45,251 bases of DNA from Octopus sinensis (lineage: Eukaryota), in the NCBI RefSeq assembly GCF_006345805.1, contig NW_021834822.1:1-45251 (forward strand), read 5' to 3'. Of this stretch, positions 4,541-45,251 are shown one piece after another (position 1 is the first letter of the stretch; each line of letters begins with the position of its first letter). Made by a program: the position numbers and the translations under genes. The notes under the pieces were generated by a model, which saw only the letters and a program-made list of their open reading frames with translations, made no database searches and was not told where the DNA came from.

Positions 4541-5825
4541 TTGGGTTGTCCGGAAAGTTCGTGCCGATTTTTAAAGGAAAGAAAAAGGTCAATAAATACT
4601 TGCCATTACATTTTTAATCAAACAAATATGAACCATTTTGTTGCACAATGCGTCTTCATTTTTCCTTTAACTTGAAAATACCCTCTTTCCAGAATTGAGG
4701 TGCTTTCATGGCAAATAATTCATCAAGGTATCTATTTACGTCATCCAAGGAATTGAAAGTTTTACCATTAAGACTGTTCTACAGAGCCCTGAATAAGTGG
4801 AAATCCGAAGGAGCAATATCTGGTGAATATGGAGGGTGGGGTAACACATCCCAGCCGAGCTTCAGCAATTTTTATCTGGTTCCCAAAGAAACGTGCGGTC
4901 TTGCATTATCATGTTGGAAAACAACACCCTACCTGTTGGCCAATTCTGGACGTTTCTCTTGAATTGCTGCTTTTAACTCGCCTATTTATGTGCAGTATAT
5001 TTCAGAATTAATTGTCTAGTTACTTGGGAGAAGCTCATAGTACAGAGTTCCTTTCCAGTCTCACCAGACACAAAGCAAGACTTTTTTAGGGTGAAGACCC
5101 GCTTTTGGGGTGGCTAAGGGTGGTACATGTCGCTTACTCCAGGATCGCTTTCTCTGAACATTTCGGTAGATAATCCATTTCTCATCACCTGTCACAATTT
5201 GCTTTAAAAAAGGTGCGTTTTCATTCCGTTTATAAAGCGAATCACAGATGGAAATGCGATCCAAAATGTTCTTCTCACTCAACTTATGTGGTACCCAAAC
5301 ATCGTAGCGATTTGTGTACCGAAGCTTTACCAGGTGGTCGCGAACGACGGATTTTGATAGGTTGAGGCTTTCTGCCAATTTTTGGGTTGTGCAATGTGGG
5401 TTATTCTCAATTAATGACATAATTTGGCCTCCATCTGCAGTGGATGGTCTGCTTGATCGCTCTTTATCAATAAATCTACAATCTCCAGCTAGGAACCTTG
5501 CGAAACACTTCCGTACAGTTCTTTCGGATAAAGAAACATCACCGTAAACTGCGCATATTTCTTTGGTTGCTTGTGAGGCATTTTTTCCTTTACGGAAAAA
5601 GAAAAGCATCAAGTGCAGAAAATGAACTTTCTTATCTTCCATTTTAAAGCGTTACAGAATTAACACATGTTATAGGGACATAAACCTTCTTCCACGAAAA
5701 GATAGCTTAAAATGTGCTCTAAATGGAGGTGTAGTCAAATCCTATTTTTATGGACTCAACCATGTTCTAAAATAAGTCGAAAGGTAAGCTACTATAAATC
5801 GGCACGAACTTTGCGGACAACCCAA
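4541..5825 (-). mobile_element. Full-length mariner (DD34D) transposon, 1285 bp, probably mellifera subfamily
   Basis: 30-bp TIRs TTGGGTTGTCCG(G/C)AAAGTTCGTGCCGATTT at 4541-4570 and 5796-5825 (1 mismatch); TA at 4539-4540 and 5826-5827. Confidence 0.97.
4614..5642 (-). pseudogene. Mariner transposase pseudogene (343 codons, 7 premature stops, no frameshift)
   Basis: WVPHKL, TGDEKW, LCVW*DWKG, HDNARPH and YSPDIAPSDFHLF all read in one frame through to TAA at 4614-4616. Confidence 0.95.
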
Positions 5826-9251: not shown

Positions 9252-9387
9252 ATGTGTGTGTGTGTATATACGTTTATAGGCACATACATATATACGCAAA
9301 AAGGGGTATATAAATACGCACTGCATGTGTGTGCACACAGGTAGTTAATGACTCACGCTGGCATAAAAATTGTTTCTGTGTTTTTGC

Positions 9388-15074: not shown

Positions 15075-15449
15075 TCAGTAGTTTTATTTTTATAACGTAC
15101 TTTCACTTCACTACCGAGCGCAGCTCTGTGTGCCTTGGGTATGTGCTGTGATTTGTTGTGATGCTCTGATAGTTACTGTGTTGAAAGTGTTCTGCGTAGG
15201 ATGTGTGCAGTGCCTAGTAGTGCAATTTTCTGTATGTTATATGTGTTTGTAAGTCCTGGTGTTTTTGTTATGTATTTGTCTGAATATTTTTTTATCATGC
15301 CTAATGCACCTACTATGATAGGAATTGTTTCTGTTTTTAGATTCCACATTCTAGATACCTCTATTTCCAGGTCTTTGTATTTTGAAAGTGTCTCCATTTC
15401 TTTTAGAGACACGTTGTCATCTGCTGGTATTGATACATCAATTAGAAAG

Positions 15450-15450
<1 letters not shown>
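15075..15450 (-). mobile_element. 5'-truncated R4/Dong-type non-LTR retrotransposon (RLE C-terminus and 3' UTR) in (TAA)n
   Basis: Open frame CFLIDVSIPADDNVSLKEMETLSKYKDLEIEVSRMWNLKTETIPIIVGALG...IQKIALLGTAHILRRTL; both junctions abut TAA-type repeats. Confidence 0.88.
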
Positions 15451-15497
<47 letters not shown>

Positions 15498-22816: not shown

Positions 22817-23366
22817 TAGCTCATTGATTTTTGTTGTTACTTAAAGCATGCGGAACCCATGTTCCATACTTCTGAAACTTTCCCATCGAATGAAGATGCT
22901 TCTTTATAGCAGTGTGGGAGCATTCCATTTTCTCTGCCAGTTCCCTTGTCGTTTGACGAGAATTTTCGTGCAAAAGTTGGTTTAATTGCTCTTCATCGAG
23001 CTCAACTGGATGGCCAGAACGAGGTGCGTCTTTGAGGTCAACATTTCCATTTTTGAACTTGGCATACCAATCACGAGCGGTTCTTTCAGCTAAGTCACCC
23101 TATCCATACACAGCACAAAATCCGCGAGCAGCTTTTGCGGCCTTAGAACCTTGAATAAAAGCAAAAAGAAAGAGGTGTTGAAAATGCTCGTTTTTCTTAA
23201 CTTGACATTCCATTTTAATGATCTGAGAATAAACAAAAATTAGCTAAAATTAACTAGAAAAACAAAACAAAAACAAAATAGACTTCAAAATGATTCAAAA
23301 ATAGAATTCTCGAAAAAAATAGATTCCAAAATTTAAAAAAACACGGGAACTTAGTTGCAAACCCAA
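22817..23366 (-). mobile_element. 5' half of a second mariner family (TIR plus N-terminal transposase with stops)
   Basis: TIR TTGGGTTTGCAACTAAGTTCCCG with TA at 23367-23368; ATG at 23213 gives MECQVKKNEHFQH...DAPRSGHP...TTRELAEKM...GTWVPHAL. Confidence 0.9.
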
Positions 23367-25085: not shown

Positions 25086-26990
25086 CCCTTGGTCTACAAA
25101 CAACCTTTCCCGAGTGTGTGGCCTCGGAGAATAACCATGTAGGTACAATCACATGGTTGTTCATGACCAAAAGGGATCTTTTGCATGTCACTAATTACCA
25201 ACTGGGTCCAATGGACTTAATAGTTTTCTTTCAATTAAATTTCATTCAAACTACCACTATTTTTTAGCTACATTATATATGCTATCAGGTGAATGAAAAA
25301 TTATTGTTTCTCGCAAATTTTAATAAAAAAAATACAGCTTCCAGAATATATAAATTTTAAAAGATTACAAAAATGCAGAATTACAGTTCTTCATGGCAGT
25401 GTATGCAGACAAAATTGGAATGTTCCTGTCAAATATAGATATTGCCATTCTTACATACAATATGAGTTTTCCTGCCTTTTTTGGGCCTCACAAATACCAT
25501 CTTCCTTTTTTATGTGGTTGAGGAATCTCAAATGAGGTTGAAGATTGTCTTCTTTTCTTGTTTAGTTGAGAAATGTTAGCGCAACTAGAAGACTATTTGT
25601 CACGTTCTTGTTTAGCATTAACCCCAGCAAGTTCCTTTCCTAACTGAATTAGGCGGTATCTTCTTTTATCCTTGAAACTTTGCAAGTGAAGCTGTTTAGC
25701 AACAATGAAAGGATTCACTAACTTTTAGCAATCATGTTGTAGAATATATTCATAGGCAACCTTAGAGTCATTCTTTTGCAAGTGTATGCCCTTACCATCT
25801 TATCTAGGATATCTTTTTACCGTCTTATCTAGGGTATCTTCTTTCTATGTTGTCCCCTTGTGGGAAATAAAAAAAATCATCTTATCTAGGGTATCTACTC
25901 CTCCTTTTGTTTTGTTGTAGCATGTAATAACTTCAGGTTTCTTTTCAGCTCTTTTTGAATCAATTGAAAGCTGAGAGTGCATTGTACTTATAAGTGTGAC
26001 TACATAATTTTTCTTGGGACAGTAAAATAGGATCATGGAATCCTTTTGAAATCCAAATATTGTGCTGTTGATTTCTCTTTTTTTTTCCATTTGTGAAAGC
26101 ACTTGGAAGTTCAACTCTTCTTTCTAATTGTTTCATCTGAAGGAGTTTTCTTGCTAAGCAGCTTTCGAGCCGATCCTAGACTTCTAAAAATATTATCACA
26201 AGTTATATTGCGACCAGTATTTTCAAGTTCTTTTACTAGGTCTTCAACAACCCTTGAACCTTGATTTGTCTCCCTTTTACTGGGTCTTTTTAAGTGTAGA
26301 TTTGCATTTTCCAGGCATAAGATATTTCCCTATCGCATATTGCCCAAACTTTAATTCCATATTTCCCTGGTTTTGAAAGAATATATACGTAGAATGGGAA
26401 GCATCCTCTGAATGAAACTAATTGTTCATCACTGTCATGCATGAGCTTGAAACATATCCATCTTGCAAATTCTGATTCGACATTTCAAATACTTCTCTTA
26501 ACGGCTCCACTTTATCATAACTTCGCTTTTTTTCTTCTTGCACTAGCATCATCAAAGCGCAATACTTGTAAAAATCTGTTGAAATCTTCCCTGTTTCATA
26601 ATTTTGTTGGGCGGCCATCTTCTTGACTCCATATCTGTGTGACATTTTCATGTTTAGATTTATAACACCTATAACAATAATCAGTGCAATAAATTTCTTT
26701 ATTTCAGAGTCATCAATTTCCTTCCATTTATCTTTGTAAACAACCTGACCTTCAACATTTGTCCATTTACGAATAACTTCAAGAAGATTCTGGTACGTAA
26801 AGATAGTAAAACATGTTTCCTTACAAGACCTTTTAGCAAAACGGGATTGTCCATATTCTTGGCGCACAATATTGCAAGATGAAGTTCTTACTGCCACTTG
26901 AGTAAGAGGATTAGGATGCAAAACGTCTTGTCTGTCCCTAGAAACATATTACTCGTTCATAACTGGGTGGTTTGAGTGATGAAAGAAGGC
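25086..26990 (-). mobile_element. Decayed piggyBac transposon (PGBD4-like transposase pseudogene)
   Basis: KPEVITCYNKTKGGVDTLDKM, SKPGKYGIKVW, GRNITCDN, VTLISTMH motifs with stops and frameshifts. TTAA|CCCTT at 25082-25090 is a likely terminus; the other end was not found. Confidence 0.88.
25091..25182 (+). mobile_element. SINE family D 3' fragment inside the presumed piggyBac terminus
   Basis: GTGTGGCCTCGGAG...AGGTACAATCACATGGTTGTTCATGACCAAAAGGGATCT matches the 3' end of 24141-24451. Confidence 0.75.
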
Positions 26991-33049: not shown

Positions 33050-33632
33050 TTATCTTTTATCTGTTACTTGTTTCAGCCATTAAACTGCGGCCATGCTGGG
33101 GAACCGCTTTCAAGAATTTCTTCGCTGAATGAATTGATCCCAGTACTTATTTTTTGTTAAGCCTGGTACTTATTCTATCGTTCTTTCTTTCCGAACTGCT
33201 AAGTTACAGGTACGTAAACGCACTAACACCTGTTGCCAAGGTATTATATATATTTTTTTTCTTTACTACCCACAAGGGGCTAAACATAGAGGGGACAAAC
33301 AAGGACAGACAAAGGGATTAAGTCAATTACATCGACCTCAGTGCAAAACTAGTACTTAATTTATCGACTCCGAAAGGATGAAAGGCAAAGTCTACCTCGG
33401 CGGAATTTGAACTCAGAACGTAACGACAGACGAAATACCGCTAAGCATTTCGCCCGGCGCGCTAACGTTTCCGCCAGCTCGCCGCCTTATATATTATATA
33501 TATACGACAGGCTTCTTTGAGTTTCCGTATAACAAATCCACTCATAGAAGGCACTTGCCCAAAAGGCCATGCAGTAGGATTGAACCAGGACCTATGTAGT
33601 TGGGAAGCAAGCTTCTTACCACACAGCCACGC
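33050..33632 (-). mobile_element. SINE family B interrupted by a young SINE family A copy (33255-33489)
   Basis: Family B 3' part at 33050-33240 and head at 33500-33632 flank a complete family A copy on the same strand. Confidence 0.85.
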
Positions 33633-34632: not shown

Positions 34633-34689
34633 ACTATCTATATATCTATCAAGGGAGAATTTACGAAAAAAACAAAAGACGAAGACAGG

Positions 34690-34985
34690 TGGTGGCACCT
34701 TGCTCACGTGTCTTGTGAGTGAATTTGGTAGACGGAAACTGAAAGAAGCCCGTCGTATATATGTATATGTAAATATCCATATTTTTATACGTGTGTGTCT
34801 TTGTGTCTGTGTTTGTCCTCCCACCTTCGCCTAACAACCGATGCTGGTGTGTTTATGTTCCCGTAACTTAGCAGTTCGGCCAAAGAAACCGATTGAACAA
34901 GTACTAGGCTTACAAAGAATAAGTCCTGGTGTGGATTGCTTCGACTAAAATTCCTTTAAGGCGGTGCTCCAGCAATGGCTGCAAT
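34690..34985 (+). mobile_element. SINE family B, 5'-truncated
   Basis: GGTAGACGGAAACTGAAAGAAGCCCGTCG ... AAGGCGGTGCTCCAGCA. Confidence 0.85.
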
Positions 34986-35108
34986 CATCCCTCCGTCCCT
35001 CCCTCCATCCATCCATTTATTTATCCATCCATACATCCATACATCCATACATACATTTATACCCCTCCACACACTTCCCTTCTCTCTTCCCCTAAGTCTC
35101 TTTGTATA

Positions 35109-35510
35109 GGCGCGGGAGTGGCTATGTGGTAAGTAGCTTGCTAACCAACCACATGGTTCCGGGTTCAGTCCCACTGCGTGGCATCTTGGGCAAGTGTCTT
35201 CTGCTATAGCCCCGGGCCGACCAATGCCTTGTGAGTGTATTTGGTAGACAGAAACTGAAAGAAGCCTGTCGTATATATGTATATATATGTATGTGTGTGT
35301 CTGTGTTTATCCCCGTAGCATTGCTTGACAACCGATGCTGGTGTGTTTATGTCCCCGTCACTTAGCGGTTCGGCAAAAGAGACCGATAGAATAAGTACTG
35401 GGCTTACAAAGAATAAGTCCCAGGGTCGAGTTGCTCGACTAAAGGCGGTGCTCCAGCATGGCCGCAGTCAAATGACTGAAACAGGTAAAAGAGTAAAAGA
35501 GTAAAGAGTA
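35109..35510 (+). mobile_element. SINE family B, full length, young
   Basis: tRNA-like head, CTTGGGCAAGTGTCTT CORE-like block, (AAAAGAGT)n tail; nearly identical to 38284-38645. Confidence 0.93.
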
Positions 35511-35567
<57 letters not shown>

Positions 35568-35723
35568 AAATAAATATAAGAGAGTGGTCACTATATTGCT
35601 CACTCTAGCACCAGTTAATCCAAAGGTTTCAAACCACGAAAATACATGTTTCCCATGAAAGTCAGTACGACTGTTAGCTCACACGGACAGGGCAAATAAA
35701 AAATAACAAAAATACAGATTATT

Positions 35724-35799
35724 TTGGGACAATGTTTTCGCTATTAATGAATTAAATGTAATATTACTTACAAAAATCCATTTGTAGCTCGTCAGCCAA
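35724..35799 (-). ncRNA. Type I hammerhead ribozyme, left-arm copy
   Basis: TTGG-CTGACGA-GCTA...TAGC-GAAA-ACATTG-TC-CCAA; stem III differs from the right-arm copy by an AC/CA swap. Confidence 0.7.
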
Positions 35800-36517
35800 G
35801 ACTATCTGGATGAAATCCACTCAATCACACGCCAGATTTTACCATAACGATAAATACGCGTGTGGTTCAATTGATTACATCCGACGTTATAATTCAAATG
35901 CCCCAACCAACAGCGCGCCAAACTTTCACGGATAACAAAACAGCATTTAGAAATAAATGCAGTATAATTATAATTAATTAATAAGGGTGAGAGAATTAGA
36001 TACTAATTTAATAGTATATTTATTCAACACCAAGTGGCCTAGTGCTACGAGAAACCTGGATTATTATAATATTTTATAACATATTATAATATTTTTACAA
36101 AATAAATATAAGAGAGTGGTCACTATATTGCTCACTCTAGCACCAGTTAATCCAAAGAAACCTTTTGGATTAACTGGTGCTAGAGTGAGCAATATAGTGA
36201 CCACTCTCTTATATTTATTTTGTAAAAATATTATAATATGTTATAAAATATTATAATAATCCAGGTTCTCGTAGCACTAGGCCACTTGGTGTTGAATAAA
36301 TATACTATTAAATTAGTATCTAATTCTCTCACCCTATTAATTAATTATAATTATACTGAATTTATTTCTAATGCTGTATTTGTTTTCCGTGAAAGTTTGG
36401 CGCGCTGTTGGTTGGGGCATTTGAATTATAACGTCGGATGTAATCAATTGAACCACACGCGTATTATCGTTATGGTAAAATCTGGCGTGTGATTGAGTGG
36501 ATTTCATCCAGATAGTC

Positions 36518-36594
36518 TTGGCTGACGAGCTACAAATGGATTTTTTGTAAGTAATATTACATTTAATTCATTAATAGCGAAACAATTGTCCCAA
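36518..36594 (+). ncRNA. Type I hammerhead ribozyme, right-arm copy
   Basis: TTGG-CTGACGA-GCTA(42 nt)TAGC-GAAA-CAATTG-TC-CCAA: all core nucleotides present, GUC triplet with predicted cut after 36590, palindromic stem III. Confidence 0.85.
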
Positions 36595-36875
36595 AATAAT
36601 CTGTATTTTTGTTATTTTTTTTTTGCCTGTCCGTGTGAGCTAACAGTCGTACTGACTTCATGGGAAACATGTATTTTCGTGGTTGAAACCTTTTGGATTA
36701 ACTGGTGCTAGAGTGAGCAATATAGTGACCACTCTCTTATATTTATTTTGTAAAAATATTATAATATGTTATAAAATATTATAATAATCCAGGTTTCTCG
36801 TAGCACTAGGCCACTTGGTGTTGAATAAATATACTATTAAATTAGTATCTAATTCTCTCACCCTTATTAATTAAT

Positions 36876-36908
<33 letters not shown>

Positions 36909-37650
36909 GTATGTATATGTATGTATATATGCATATTTATATATATAAATGTGTTTATGTGTATTTGTGTGTATAATATTACACCTCTTGTTACACACTC
37001 CCACCCCACTCCTTAGAAACCTCCATATACCATCACTCAACTTTTCGTTACTTCTTTACCTTCTTGATATCCAAATGATATCCTCTAAGGATTTTACTAA
37101 CTCCTGGATATGTTACGTATCTTGGAATTTTCCTGGTATATCTTTCTACGTACATAAGTATGTATGAATACCGCAAATATCACAAATCACGTGTTTTATC
37201 AAGTGATTTCCTTTCTATCATTCATTCATTCTTTCTTTCTTTCTTCTTTCTTTCTGTTGTTTCTTTATTTTTGTTTGTTTACTGGTTTTTGTTAGTTAAT
37301 TTGTCATTCTGTTCATATTTCTTTATTCATTCAACACGCCTCACTATCCCATTCCACTTCAAGCCCACTTCTCACACGTATATATACATGTCCCAAGGGT
37401 GAATAACAAACATACAGGGACAGAAACCGACAAATATTTCTTGACATTTTGGTTTAATAACTGCTTCGGTACGTGTCCGGAACATGTATATATATAATTT
37501 GTTTTCGAATAAGCCTCTTTCTGATAACATATATCTAATTTTGATATTAGCTTGAATCTAACACATGCGCATATGGGCATATCTTCCTACGTACATAAGT
37601 ATGTATGAATACCGCAAATATCACAAATCACGTGTTTTATCAAGTGCTTT

Positions 37651-37886: not shown

Positions 37887-38283
37887 TATGGGCATATTCT
37901 AGCGGCGGAGTTGTAAACACATCAGGTTTTCATACGGAATGTGCGTTTACAATTTGGAACTTTGGAACTAAAATTCTAAAACCCTCACAGACTGTCATAG
38001 TATCTTATATTTCTGAAATAAATCACTGAATTAACATCGCTGTTTCAAGAGTGAACATTAAAATATATGGATTGAGAGGATTCGAGACTCTGAGTTGATA
38101 ATATTTCATGGACAACCAGCCAATTGACCAGCGATAGGTTGACCCCTTCAGGCCAGTACATGACACAGCCGTTACAAGGTGAATTCTGTCGCGTTCGAAT
38201 TCAGATATTTAACTTCAGGGAACATATAACGGCATAACGTAAAAAAAAATATTGAGGTGTTTGTTGAAAAATATTGATATGTT

Positions 38284-38645
38284 TCCGGGTTCAATCCCAC
38301 TGCGTGGCATCTTGGGCAAGTGTCTTCTGCTATAGCCCCGGGCCGACCAATGCCTTGTGAGTGGATTTGGTAGACGGAAACTGAAAGAAGCCTGTCGTAT
38401 ATATGTATATATATATGTATGTGTGTGTCTATTTGTGTGTCTGTGTTTGTCCCCCTAGCATTGCTTGACAACCGATGCTGGTGTGTTTACGTCCCCGTCA
38501 CTTAGCGGTTCGGCAAAAGAGACCAATAGAATAAGTACTGGGCTTACAAAGAGTAAGTCCCGGGGTCGATTTGCTCGACTAAAGGCGGTGCTCCAGCATG
38601 GCCGCAGTCAAATGACTGAAACAAGTAAAAGAGTAAAAGAGAGAG
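38284..38645 (+). mobile_element. SINE family B, 5'-truncated, young
   Basis: Near-identical to 35157-35510. Confidence 0.93.
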
Positions 38646-39345: not shown

Positions 39346-40581
39346 ACCTTTCAGATAATATTGATACAAGAGACATGATACCGTGATTACATATTATTTT
39401 ATATTTCTTTGATTTTTGCATTGCGTTATTTCTTGCTATTCTCTTTCTTTCTATTCTTCGTAACTTTAGCTTAAATTTCAACGATGTATTCCGCGTTGAA
39501 CTCCTTGAAATCCCATATATCGCTTTCATGATCACTCAATAAGCAGTTCAAAATCCAGTGACGCAGAAATATACTTGGAAACCTGAACTTCGTTTATCTT
39601 TGCAAGTTGATAACCACGAGAAAAATTTAAGTCTTTAGTTTTTGAAGAAGTAGATAGTACTGAAATCTTCCCGCCTGTTCAAGAACTTATTCTTTCTGTT
39701 CTAGAAGTCTCTGTTAAAAACACCCACAGTAGTGAAATATTTCGGCACTATGATTAGTGAAAAACTTAGTCATGATAAAAACATTATTGATAATCGTCTA
39801 TATTTTATTGTGTCTTTTGAATATATTTCATGTAAATGTTTTCAGGAACAAACATAAATTTATTCAGAAAGATATTCATATATTCAGACAAGATTCAAGA
39901 TGTTTGAGATTTTTACTTCATTGTAACCCTTCTAAAATCCAAGAAACAGAAAATTTAAATAATCAAGTACGTTTTCCATTTGCATCTGCATTTTTCTGTC
40001 GTGAACTTTGCTCACAAAAACTTGAAATAACACTTCTTCAATCCTACCTTAAGAAAATTCATGTAGCACTTAGCTTATGTATGTTACTTTTACCTATAAT
40101 AATATAATTATATAATACAATCCCGTCTGTTTTTCACTCTCTAGAATCAGTAAGATATCAGCATGTTGCACAATGATTCTTTTTCATGATTTATTCAATA
40201 TTCTTATGTTCATCGATAGTATATTGTGTACATTCTTTTCAATTCAAGGTTTCTAAGTTCCAACTCTATTATGAGAATGTCAGTTTATATATCTTGGTCA
40301 ATAATCAATATGTATATTGTATGTATGGAAGTATTTTTTGTATTATTCTACTTAGGATTAAAAAAGAAATAATTTTAAGATTCCTCTATCCTGATTTGTC
40401 GTATATATATAAATATGTGTGTGCGTGTATTATTGTTTAGTAACTCAATATTCGAGACAAAATTGTAATAAATTACTACTGTGATATTTTTTTTTCTGTT
40501 AGTGGCATACATTTTATCTTCTGTATATAACGTTAACCTCAGTTTTGTAAAGACATTTTTAAGATGCTAGTTTTTAATACA

Positions 40582-40798
40582 AGTTTTAAATTTTGGAACA
40601 AGACCTGCAATTTCGGGGGAAGGATGATAGTCAATTACATCATCCTCAGTGCTCAACTGGTACCTATTTTATCGTCCCTGGAAGGATGAAAGGCAAAGTC
40701 GACCTCGGTCGAATTTGAACTCAAAAGTTAAAAACGGACGAAAGACTACTAAGCATTTTGTCCAGCGTGCTAACGATTCTGACAGTTCGCCAACCTTA
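40582..40798 (-). mobile_element. SINE family A
   Basis: GAAGGATGAAAGGCAAAGTCGACCTCGGTCGAATTTGAACTCA on the plus strand. Confidence 0.85.
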
Positions 40799-40849
40799 AA
40801 TAGTCTTTGAATATAAAGAAAAAAAAAAGAATGGGAAAAACTATTTCGG

Positions 40850-41062
40850 GTAGCAGACTGGCAGAATGGTCAGCACGCCAGACGCAGTACTTAGCGAGCT
40901 TTCGTTCGTCTTTTCGTTTTGAGTTCAAATTCTGCCGAGATCGACTTTGCCTCTCACCCTCCGGCGCGTCGATAAAATAAGTATCAGTAAGCACTGAGGT
41001 CGATAAAATCGAATTATCCCCCTCCGAAATTACTGGCATTGTGCCCAAATTCGAAACCAGTA
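40850..41062 (+). mobile_element. SINE family A
   Basis: CTGGCAGAATGGTCAGCACGCC head, GAGTTCAAATTCTGCCGAGATCGACTTTGCC. Confidence 0.85.
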
Positions 41063-41306
41063 TTAAAACAACCTTGTGTCATCATTGACACATTTAATCT
41101 AAGAAATGGGAAAACTTAATTGAAATTTAACCAATAACTAACTGAAAAATGAAAAAAAGAACGCCCAAAACTTAGAGGTGTAATTAATATTTTAAGAAAA
41201 GCATAGCGAATATAAATTTGCGGGATTATGAGTATTGCCATGGCTGTAAGTTTGAAACATATTATATGTTAGTTTACATGTTTATATGTTATTTTAATTA
41301 TTACTA

Positions 41307-44267: not shown

Positions 44268-45251
44268 TGTGTTGGGCCCACTTCTCTTCATCATCTACAT
44301 AAATGATATTACTGACACCATCAAACACAGCAACATCAGAACCTTCGCTGATAATTCCAGCTCCAGAAGGTCATCAATGGCGTGGATGACCGAATAAACC
44401 TTCAGTCAGACCTACTGGCTGTTGTTCAATGGGCGGAAAAGAAAAACATGTTGCTAAATGAAGACAAATTCGAACTGATCCACTTTGGAAGGGAGGACGC
44501 TCTGAAACTCCCATACCTCTTCCTTCTGGAGAAATTCTCATGGCATCCAACAACATCAGAGACCTGGGAGTAACAGTGGACAACAACATAAGCTGGGCTA
44601 CACATATAAGCAGCAAAGTTGACATGGCCCGCAGAATGTGTTCCTGGATTCTCAGAACCTTCCAGTCGAGAGATTCCCACGCTATATCCTTCTCTTCTCC
44701 ACTTTTCCCGACCCCACCTTGAATACTGCTGTCCACTGTGGTCTCCCTACACAAAACAAAATATTATGAAGATTGAAGCTCCCCAAAGGTCAATCACAAA
44801 AAAGATAGATGGCATGTCAGACCTTGACTACTGGGGTAGACTAGAGAAGCTGAAATTGTATTCACTCCAACGACGCCGTGAACGCTACATTATCTGTATG
44901 AGTGGGGAAAATATTCCATCAGCACTGTCCGAATGATGTTGGCATCACCTTCAAAATGCATCCACGGCTTGGACCACGTGCCATCCGTCCACAAACAAAA
45001 TCTTAAATCGCATCACATAACGACAATACGGCACAACTTTCACCTCATTTGGACCTGCTCTCTTCAACATTACACCAGGACACGTCAAAAAAGAAACTGA
45101 CCACACAAAATCAAGAAGTCTTTGGACAAATTCCTTCAAACAGTAACGGACAAACCACCCACACCCGAATATGTCTCCGCAAACAATAACTCTTGCTCGA
45201 ATGGGCCTTGGTGCCCAAATCCTGAACTGAAAGACTTCGCCAGGTGGTGCT
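44266..45251 (+). mobile_element. 5'-truncated CR1-group LINE (RT C-terminal half, frameshifted)
   Basis: [56 protein letters not shown] motifs; 5' junction lies in (TA)n. Confidence 0.92.

Follow-up and report, generated by a model that had tools for sequence, protein, structure and literature searches.

A palindrome of two non-coding repeat copies and its predicted hammerhead ribozyme in Octopus sinensis: likeness to animal retrozymes and to Penelope-like insertions

The sequence analysed here (the window) is a 45,251 nt stretch of Octopus sinensis DNA (assembly GCF_006345805.1, contig NW_021834822.1, nt 1 – 45251) that is AT-rich, microsatellite-rich and of animal type. At nt 35567 – 36879 it carries a head-to-head palindrome with arms of 591 nt and 723 nt that are 97.5% identical. 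The left arm (nt 35567 – 36157, minus strand) comprises a 532-nt unit plus 59 nt, and this terminal redundancy (nt 35567 – 35625, minus strand) repeats nt 36099 – 36157. The right arm (nt 36157 – 36879, plus strand) consists of a first unit of 528 nt (nt 36157 – 36684) followed by a terminal redundancy of 191 to 195 nt (nt 36685 – 36879) that represents the start of a second unit, the final 4 nt (TATA) being common to the arm and the adjacent microsatellite. There are 1.37 units on the right strand and 1.11 on the left. The arms meet at nt 36157 – 36163, where their starts lie 6 nt apart on the unit map, and their outer ends are about 125 – 130 nt apart on the same map. A preliminary description of this DNA had reported the palindrome and its centre (TCCAAAG-AAACC-TTTTGGA), arms longer than one unit, nearly equal arm starts and (TA)n at both arm ends, all of which are confirmed by these values.

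The palindrome is bordered by microsatellites, (TACA)n(CA)n(TA)n on the left (nt 35511 – 35566) and (TA)n(TGTA)n on the right (nt 36880 – 36947), which together would represent the target. At this one locus (TA)n is found at both outer ends, and any target-site duplication would be masked by it. The inverted match is limited to nt 35547 – 36767 and the TA runs, and the two flanks are unlike, without mirroring. No further copies of the unit were found in the window. It is likely that the palindrome was inserted recently into a (TA)n microsatellite.

The unit has a G+C content of 32% and, as had been noted previously, no credible ORF. Frames starting with ATG do not exceed 17 aa on the hammerhead strand (see below) or 56 aa on the opposite strand, and nine frames of the element gave no Pfam match. 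A 66-aa frame returned four matches, two of them to sequences with internal repeats and two to RCC1-repeat proteins, but none to a reverse transcriptase (RT) or GIY-YIG protein, and a 42-aa frame had no homologue. This downstream 42-aa frame was rejected, since chance alone would yield stop-free stretches as long (stop rate 0.073). Also rejected was a spliced mini-frame beginning at an ATG in helix II of the ribozyme, with an intron from nt 36547: no such skip occurs among the contig joints described below, and a contig of run X5 spans the position unspliced. A frame with RT and GIY-YIG domains is absent from the element, and none was recognised among the window frames scanned.

A type I hammerhead ribozyme is predicted at nt 36509 – 36603 (plus strand) by a descriptor of our own, which specifies a CUGANGA core, a G-C pair opening helix II, GAAA, a palindromic helix III insert, UH and a helix I of 4 bp. 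Helix I, divided in two by an internal loop (nt 36509-13/36599-603 and 36518-21/36591-94), is followed by the core CTGACGA (nt 36522-28), a helix II of 4 bp (nt 36529-32/36575-78) extended by a long hairpin, GAAA (nt 36579-82), and a helix III of only 2 bp with a palindromic AATT loop; the predicted cut falls after nt 36590. The descriptor had a single match on the two strands of the window, at nt 36522 in the right arm, and none when the unit was dinucleotide-shuffled 20,000 times. A search of Rfam returned no hammerhead and nothing at gathering score; its 26 weak matches were all to hairpin or AT-repeat families. In the left arm the corresponding copy (approximately nt 35715 – 35808, minus strand) reads GAAAACATTGTC, which breaks helix III and fails the descriptor. 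The family contigs (below) list no departure from the right-arm letters of helix III, and the left-arm defect is probably a sequencing slip. Inside the core, the sole family variant listed is at nt 36526, the free position 7, a single and weakly supported site. The catalytic fold, when constrained, has a predicted energy of -19.7 kcal/mol; the free fold, in which helices I and II are retained but helix III is open, reaches -25.3 kcal/mol. An architecture with a short helix III, of dimer type, is described for metazoan type I hammerheads (PMC4209133), and the structure predicted here is similar. Neither outer end of the palindrome coincides with the ribozyme site, as was stated in the preliminary description: they lie about 160 nt and 285 – 289 nt beyond the predicted cut.

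Self-pairing of the unit is strong. Relative to shuffled sequences its predicted folds have z-scores of -7.9 (linear) and of -6.6 and -5.0 (circular), compared with values above -2 for 14 of 16 control stretches, the other two of which (at nt 9300 and 28200) overlap microsatellites. Long helices are predicted to enclose the hammerhead. Linear permutations of the unit, however, fold to between -145 and -151 kcal/mol, as against -144 kcal/mol for the circle, and the antisense strand likewise outfolds its shuffles, so that the data point to a structured repeat and do not imply a circle.

The unit belongs to a family that is well represented in sequencing data, with half or more of its words present in at least 20 runs from 9 studies under 3 organism labels. 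None of these listed runs is on record as RNA, some being RNA by guess. Contigs of four among the 23 listed runs were aligned to the unit in permuted form (nt 36340 – 36885); three of these (X1, X2 and X4) are DNA by guess or unlabelled, and X5 is RNA by guess. The numbers of contigs aligned were 2,098 (X1), 3,850 (X2) and 1,063 (X4), covering 29 of 29 bins in each case, and most were 95 – 100% identical to the unit. Summed contig depth ranged from 2 × 10^4 to 1 × 10^6 (single rare contigs, 14 – 54), sums that do not give a copy number and were not used for placing element boundaries. We infer that the unit family is very abundant and young. The near-identity of the two arms and the similarity of the family contigs are also in keeping with the recent event proposed in the preliminary description.

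In X1, X2 and X4 the share of contigs running into unlike sequence was 0, and loose ends at nt 36879 continue into the unit, indicating that the unit map closes on itself. At least three loose ends do lead into unlike sequence (nt 36498 in X2 and X4, nt 36601 in X1), with 149 more loose ends beyond those listed. The exit at nt 36498, seen under two organism labels, lies just before the hammerhead and passes into a different, faintly similar sequence; it may represent a sister subfamily or a junction to a coding partner. Nothing in the contigs aligned pointed to a coding partner attached to the unit, which bears on a check put forward with the preliminary description for a fixed association with an RT/GIY-YIG ORF, and an autonomous Penelope-like element (PLE) partner was found neither in the contigs of the four runs nor among the window frames scanned. 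Full tandems with two hammerheads on the same strand were not seen in the contigs, which are short, or at the locus, which has one per strand. An exact 24-mer of the unit had 0 occurrences in metagenome, prokaryote-genome and viral contigs alike; 27 metagenome loci matching a 20-mer were dismissed as chance, since all 27 match over 20 – 22 bases only.

Two other strand-change joints were present among the family contigs, at nt 36466/36838 (X1) and nt 36705/36839 (X5), and at both the counts of shared letters fit a head-to-head rather than a tail-to-tail arrangement. Both are asymmetric, their arm starts being about 130 – 160 nt apart on the circular map. Each has one arm starting at nt 36838 – 36839, in different runs with different organism labels, beside a 6-bp hairpin (nt 36840 – 36854). 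From these two cases the position is possibly a preferred 5' stop or an RNA start. In run X4, one contig breaks off within the hammerhead core and resumes immediately after the predicted cut (nt 36525 – 36591).

Aligned outward from the centre, the arms differ at 15 places in about 593 columns. Ten of these are single-base gaps, in agreement with the earlier remark that the differences are mostly single-base indels. Reads carry the left-arm letter at nt 36357, 36369, 36463, 36621 and 36656 (and partly at nt 36625), and the second right-arm unit sides with the left arm at nt 36266 and 36335, but at nt 36377, 36385, 36540, 36583-5, 36682 and 36691 no change towards the left arm is listed. Because the differing sites are split in this way, each arm appears to have its own homopolymer-type slips relative to the family, and the suspicion of sequencing error raised beforehand seems justified; probably there is no true difference between the arms. 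Of 12 family-variable sites checked, 11 have one and the same letter in both arms, indicating a single source.

Such slips, present in both arms, together with the failure to recover the centre joint in the four runs, could also be taken to mean that a real single copy of the repeat was turned into a palindrome artificially, by assembly or through a fold-back read. None of the runs lists the joint found at this locus, but since contigs drop rare variants this neither confirms nor refutes the locus. The flanks are not mirrored, the right arm continues for 130 nt beyond the mirror point and borders on a different flank, and other head-to-head joints of the family occur in independent runs. Missed bases are moreover known from nanopore reads of true inverted duplicates (PMC7229812), and base loss would be expected of a genuine duplicate on that platform, which may differ from the one used for this window. 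An artefact is thus considered quite improbable. The near-symmetric centre with its short spacer and the identical alleles of the two arms would suit a fold-back at the DNA level, by replication or break repair of a single inserted copy, in which retrotransposition played no part. Against this, the duplication ends inside the element and no flank has been copied, both outer ends lie in one microsatellite, and the family has other head-to-head joints, so that this explanation appears very improbable.

The anatomy of the locus is close to that reported for PLEs, whose insertions often combine a partial tandem with a 5'-truncated copy in inverse orientation and show a bias towards (TA)n and other microsatellites (PMC8557442). 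Head-to-head is the commonest inverted form among PLEs, one junction has a 15-bp offset, and self-priming has been proposed (PMC3846280); the structure is accordingly less unusual than the preliminary description had held. The sole PLE reconstituted to date acts on AT-rich DNA, both strands of which it cuts and extends, and starts internally in the RNA; hammerhead cleavage is unneeded and uncut RNA is the main template (PMC11167929). The identification of a hammerhead-bearing, non-coding repeat family with PLE-type insertion anatomy, made in the preliminary description, is upheld by the descriptor match, the lack of a frame, the inverted arm and the microsatellite.

We tentatively prefer, at somewhat less than even confidence, the reading that the locus contains two head-to-head copies of an abundant non-coding repeat of about 530 nt with a predicted hammerhead, for which a borrowed Penelope-like RT/endonuclease used an uncut transcript of more than unit length as its template before folding back. 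The non-coding unit family occurs in runs of three organism labels, and a tandem or partial-tandem copy of it would be transcribed. Judging from PLE biochemistry, a PLE protein would nick AT-rich DNA, and reverse transcription would begin inside the RNA, about 190 nt into the second unit. The 723-nt copy passes straight through the ribozyme cut site, and as this arm is continuous there, its template was not cut at that site (it was either uncut or re-ligated). The cDNA would then fold back at its 5' stop, or a second cDNA of the same source would stop there, giving the 591-nt inverted arm, which would join the other end of the target. Finally, to judge from one run that is RNA by guess, transcripts of inverted copies would form long duplexes that are hyper-edited by ADAR, the ribozyme core included (see below).

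Of the two routes to the inverted arm, fold-back is favoured because the short arm lies within the span of the long arm, starts 6 nt away from it and carries the same alleles; the asymmetry of the two other joints, on the other hand, fits two separate cDNAs better. Several observations count against the preferred reading as a whole, namely that the four runs list neither the centre joint of this locus nor a full tandem with two hammerheads on one strand, that no autonomous PLE partner was found in the sequences covered, the loose ends that pass into unlike sequence, the offset of the outer ends, about 130 nt as against the usual 30 – 40-nt tail of PLEs, and the strong self-pairing and 2-bp palindromic helix III, which are also typical of circle-forming retrozymes. 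A mini-palindrome at the centre was considered as a primer for the fold-back. Read from the left arm it comprises 5 bp, but the family sequence reduces it to 4 bp (GGTT-GA-AACC). For 41% of the unit, moreover, a comparable mini-palindrome is found within 6 nt, so that the one at the centre was given no weight as evidence.

The template proposed in the preliminary description was a circular RNA of about 530 nt, produced by dimeric hammerhead cleavage and ligation and reverse transcribed for more than one lap, as in the cycle of non-LTR retrozymes. This is consistent with the closed circular map, for which no boundary was seen in the contigs, with a fold far better than that of shuffles (z -7.9 linear, -6.6 and -5.0 circular) or of the 14 of 16 controls that score above -2, with the short palindromic helix III of dimer type and with the X4 contig joint that resumes exactly at nt 36591. 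Circles have been shown for retrozymes of coral, mussel and axolotl (PMC7229834) and proposed as a PLE template (PMC4209133). However, a mere 1.37 laps are needed, for which a dimer transcript suffices; linear permutations fold equally well; the reconstituted PLE used uncut RNA (PMC11167929); and the 530-nt unit exceeds the 170 – 400 nt of demonstrated circles (PMC7229834). The redundancy of both arms had been taken to point to a circle, but the left arm, if a fold-back copy of the first cDNA, would inherit its redundancy, which leaves one observation, and an uncut tandem accounts for it as well. At this locus a circle and an uncut tandem transcript explain the intact cut site equally well. 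Taking all of this into account, a circular template is possible, if on balance doubtful.

A second alternative to the uncut non-coding transcript preferred here is that the unit is the terminal repeat (pseudo-LTR and tail) of a coding PLE, the locus being a heavily 5'-truncated inverted insertion of it. Hammerhead pairs on opposite strands, 100 – 700 bp apart, have been reported and probably represent truncated PLEs (PMC4209133), and in two runs loose ends exit the unit at nt 36498, just before the hammerhead. Each arm, though, closes on itself, with the end of the unit leading to its start and no open frame between the repeats; the share of contigs running on into unlike sequence is 0 in the three DNA runs; and neither RT nor GIY-YIG nor another credible protein is matched by the frames of the unit. 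We therefore regard a coding PLE as an improbable source.

Run X5 differs from the DNA runs in its pattern of substitutions. Among its 15 listed changed places, A>G accounts for 7 and T>C for 6, and 11 such places are absent or below 0.1% in X1, X2 and X4 (nt 36536 and 36808 vary in DNA and were excluded). Four X5 loose ends, compared by eye, show only A-to-G changes besides the one-base insertions of the family, and in one of these 11 of 14 adenosines are converted, including three after G36579 in the catalytic core. When strand is taken into account there are 34 distinct A-to-G sites, only 2 of which have G or C as 5' neighbour (background 29.6%, P = 7.5 × 10^-4); ADAR has a 5'-neighbour bias in which G is depleted upstream (PMC5625713). 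The strand symmetry and the neighbour bias suggest that the family is transcribed in both directions into long duplexes that are hyper-edited. Unit-family RNA thus appears to be heavily A-to-I edited, with edits reaching the catalytic core, as seen in one RNA-guess run and at the level of the family rather than of this locus. A transcript of the locus is predicted to form a hairpin in which 1,218 of 1,309 bases are paired. No report of edited retrozymes or hammerheads was found, judging by titles and abstract openings among the matches listed, and strand-symmetric A-to-G hyper-editing that reaches a hammerhead core (X5, RNA by guess) appears to be new here. A bolder scenario, which we consider unlikely, would have a hammerhead circle of about 530 nt amplified by PLEs to thousands of copies and routinely inserted as head-to-head pairs, giving perfect 0.6-kb RNA hairpins that are a major ADAR substrate, with editing of the GAAA core acting as a host brake.

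Animal non-LTR retrozymes (Cervera and de la Peña 2020, PMC7229834; Li et al. 2026) share many features with the unit. They are non-coding and of low G+C content (32% in the unit), have one type I hammerhead per unit (predicted in the present case) with a short palindromic helix III, yield highly self-paired RNA, show partial head-to-tail repetition and have been proposed to be mobilised by PLEs. At 530 nt the unit is longer than the demonstrated circles of 170 – 400 nt (PMC7229834) and within the 51 – 972 bp range of Li et al. (bioRxiv 10.64898/2026.07.22.740005). Unlike them it has a long helix II, and non-LTR retrozymes are defined by a head-to-tail run of two or more units with an intact hammerhead in each, whereas this locus has fewer than two units per strand, arranged head to head. 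For this reason, and as circles are only proposed here, the locus is not filed as a proven retrozyme. Endonuclease-bearing PLEs (Penelope/Poseidon, Neptune, Naiad) have in common with it an inverted, 5'-truncated head-to-head copy with a small offset (PMC8557442, PMC3846280, PMC11167929), a partial tandem, a hammerhead, a microsatellite target and ends away from the ribozyme cut; they differ in having an RT/GIY-YIG frame and a 30 – 40-nt tail in place of the end offset of about 130 nt. The locus resembles an animal non-LTR retrozyme inserted with PLE anatomy, and is neither a proven retrozyme nor an autonomous PLE. With regard to editing, inverted copies of lizard Penelope, palindromic frog Harbinger and primate SINEs give long duplexes with clustered ADAR edits (PMC5625713), much as proposed here. 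By contrast, the substrate in the present case would be a ribozyme-bearing non-coding unit, with edits extending into the catalytic GAAA in the contigs of one run.

According to a 2026 preprint, non-coding hammerhead repeats derive from PLEs, and one of nine retrozyme dimers was cleaved in vitro; the species it names as sampled are vertebrates, insects and a coral, and its supplements could list related families (bioRxiv 10.64898/2026.07.22.740005). No description of an octopus hammerhead ribozyme family was found among the papers listed in our searches, three short motifs had no match in full texts, and the passages of PMC8967140 examined do not mention ribozymes. The 2026 annotation of Octopus vulgaris reports 190 Penelope-like families making up 6.83% of the genome, 31 of them recently active, and the unit family may sit unnamed in that repeat library (PMC13282606). 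The anatomy described above shows PLE behaviour of a known type, in a clean and young case, acting on a non-coding passenger, and lends support to the recent proposal that PLE enzymes mobilise animal retrozymes. Two questions could be tested in this system: whether the tandem and inverted structures of PLEs arise from circular or from uncut linear RNA, and how retrozyme hammerheads are kept inactive in vivo. The second is a question left by PMC7229834, and hyper-editing that reaches the core bears on it directly. The unit is also a candidate contributor to the unusually many near-perfect duplexes and the heavy editing of the octopus (PMC5625713).

Elsewhere in the window there are fragments of a mariner-type transposase (nt 5061 – 5651 and 22821 – 23099, minus strand; Pfam HTH_48 and Transposase_1), and fragments with Pfam DDE_Tnp_1_7 at nt 25845 – 26948 (minus strand) are presumably piggyBac-like. 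Frames at nt 15173 – 15451 (minus strand) and nt 44374 – 45250 are taken by us to be LINE-end-like (restriction-like endonuclease type and CR1/L2 type); the two scanned had no Pfam match. A SINE-like repeat is present in many copies of both orientations flanking the element (nt 34680 – 35500, 38279 – 38641, 33055 – 33630 and others) and could potentially form duplex RNA. A second, old pair of SINE-like sequences, either head-to-head or tail-to-tail, is located at nt 40572 – 41068 and is about 71% self-complementary over 505 nt.
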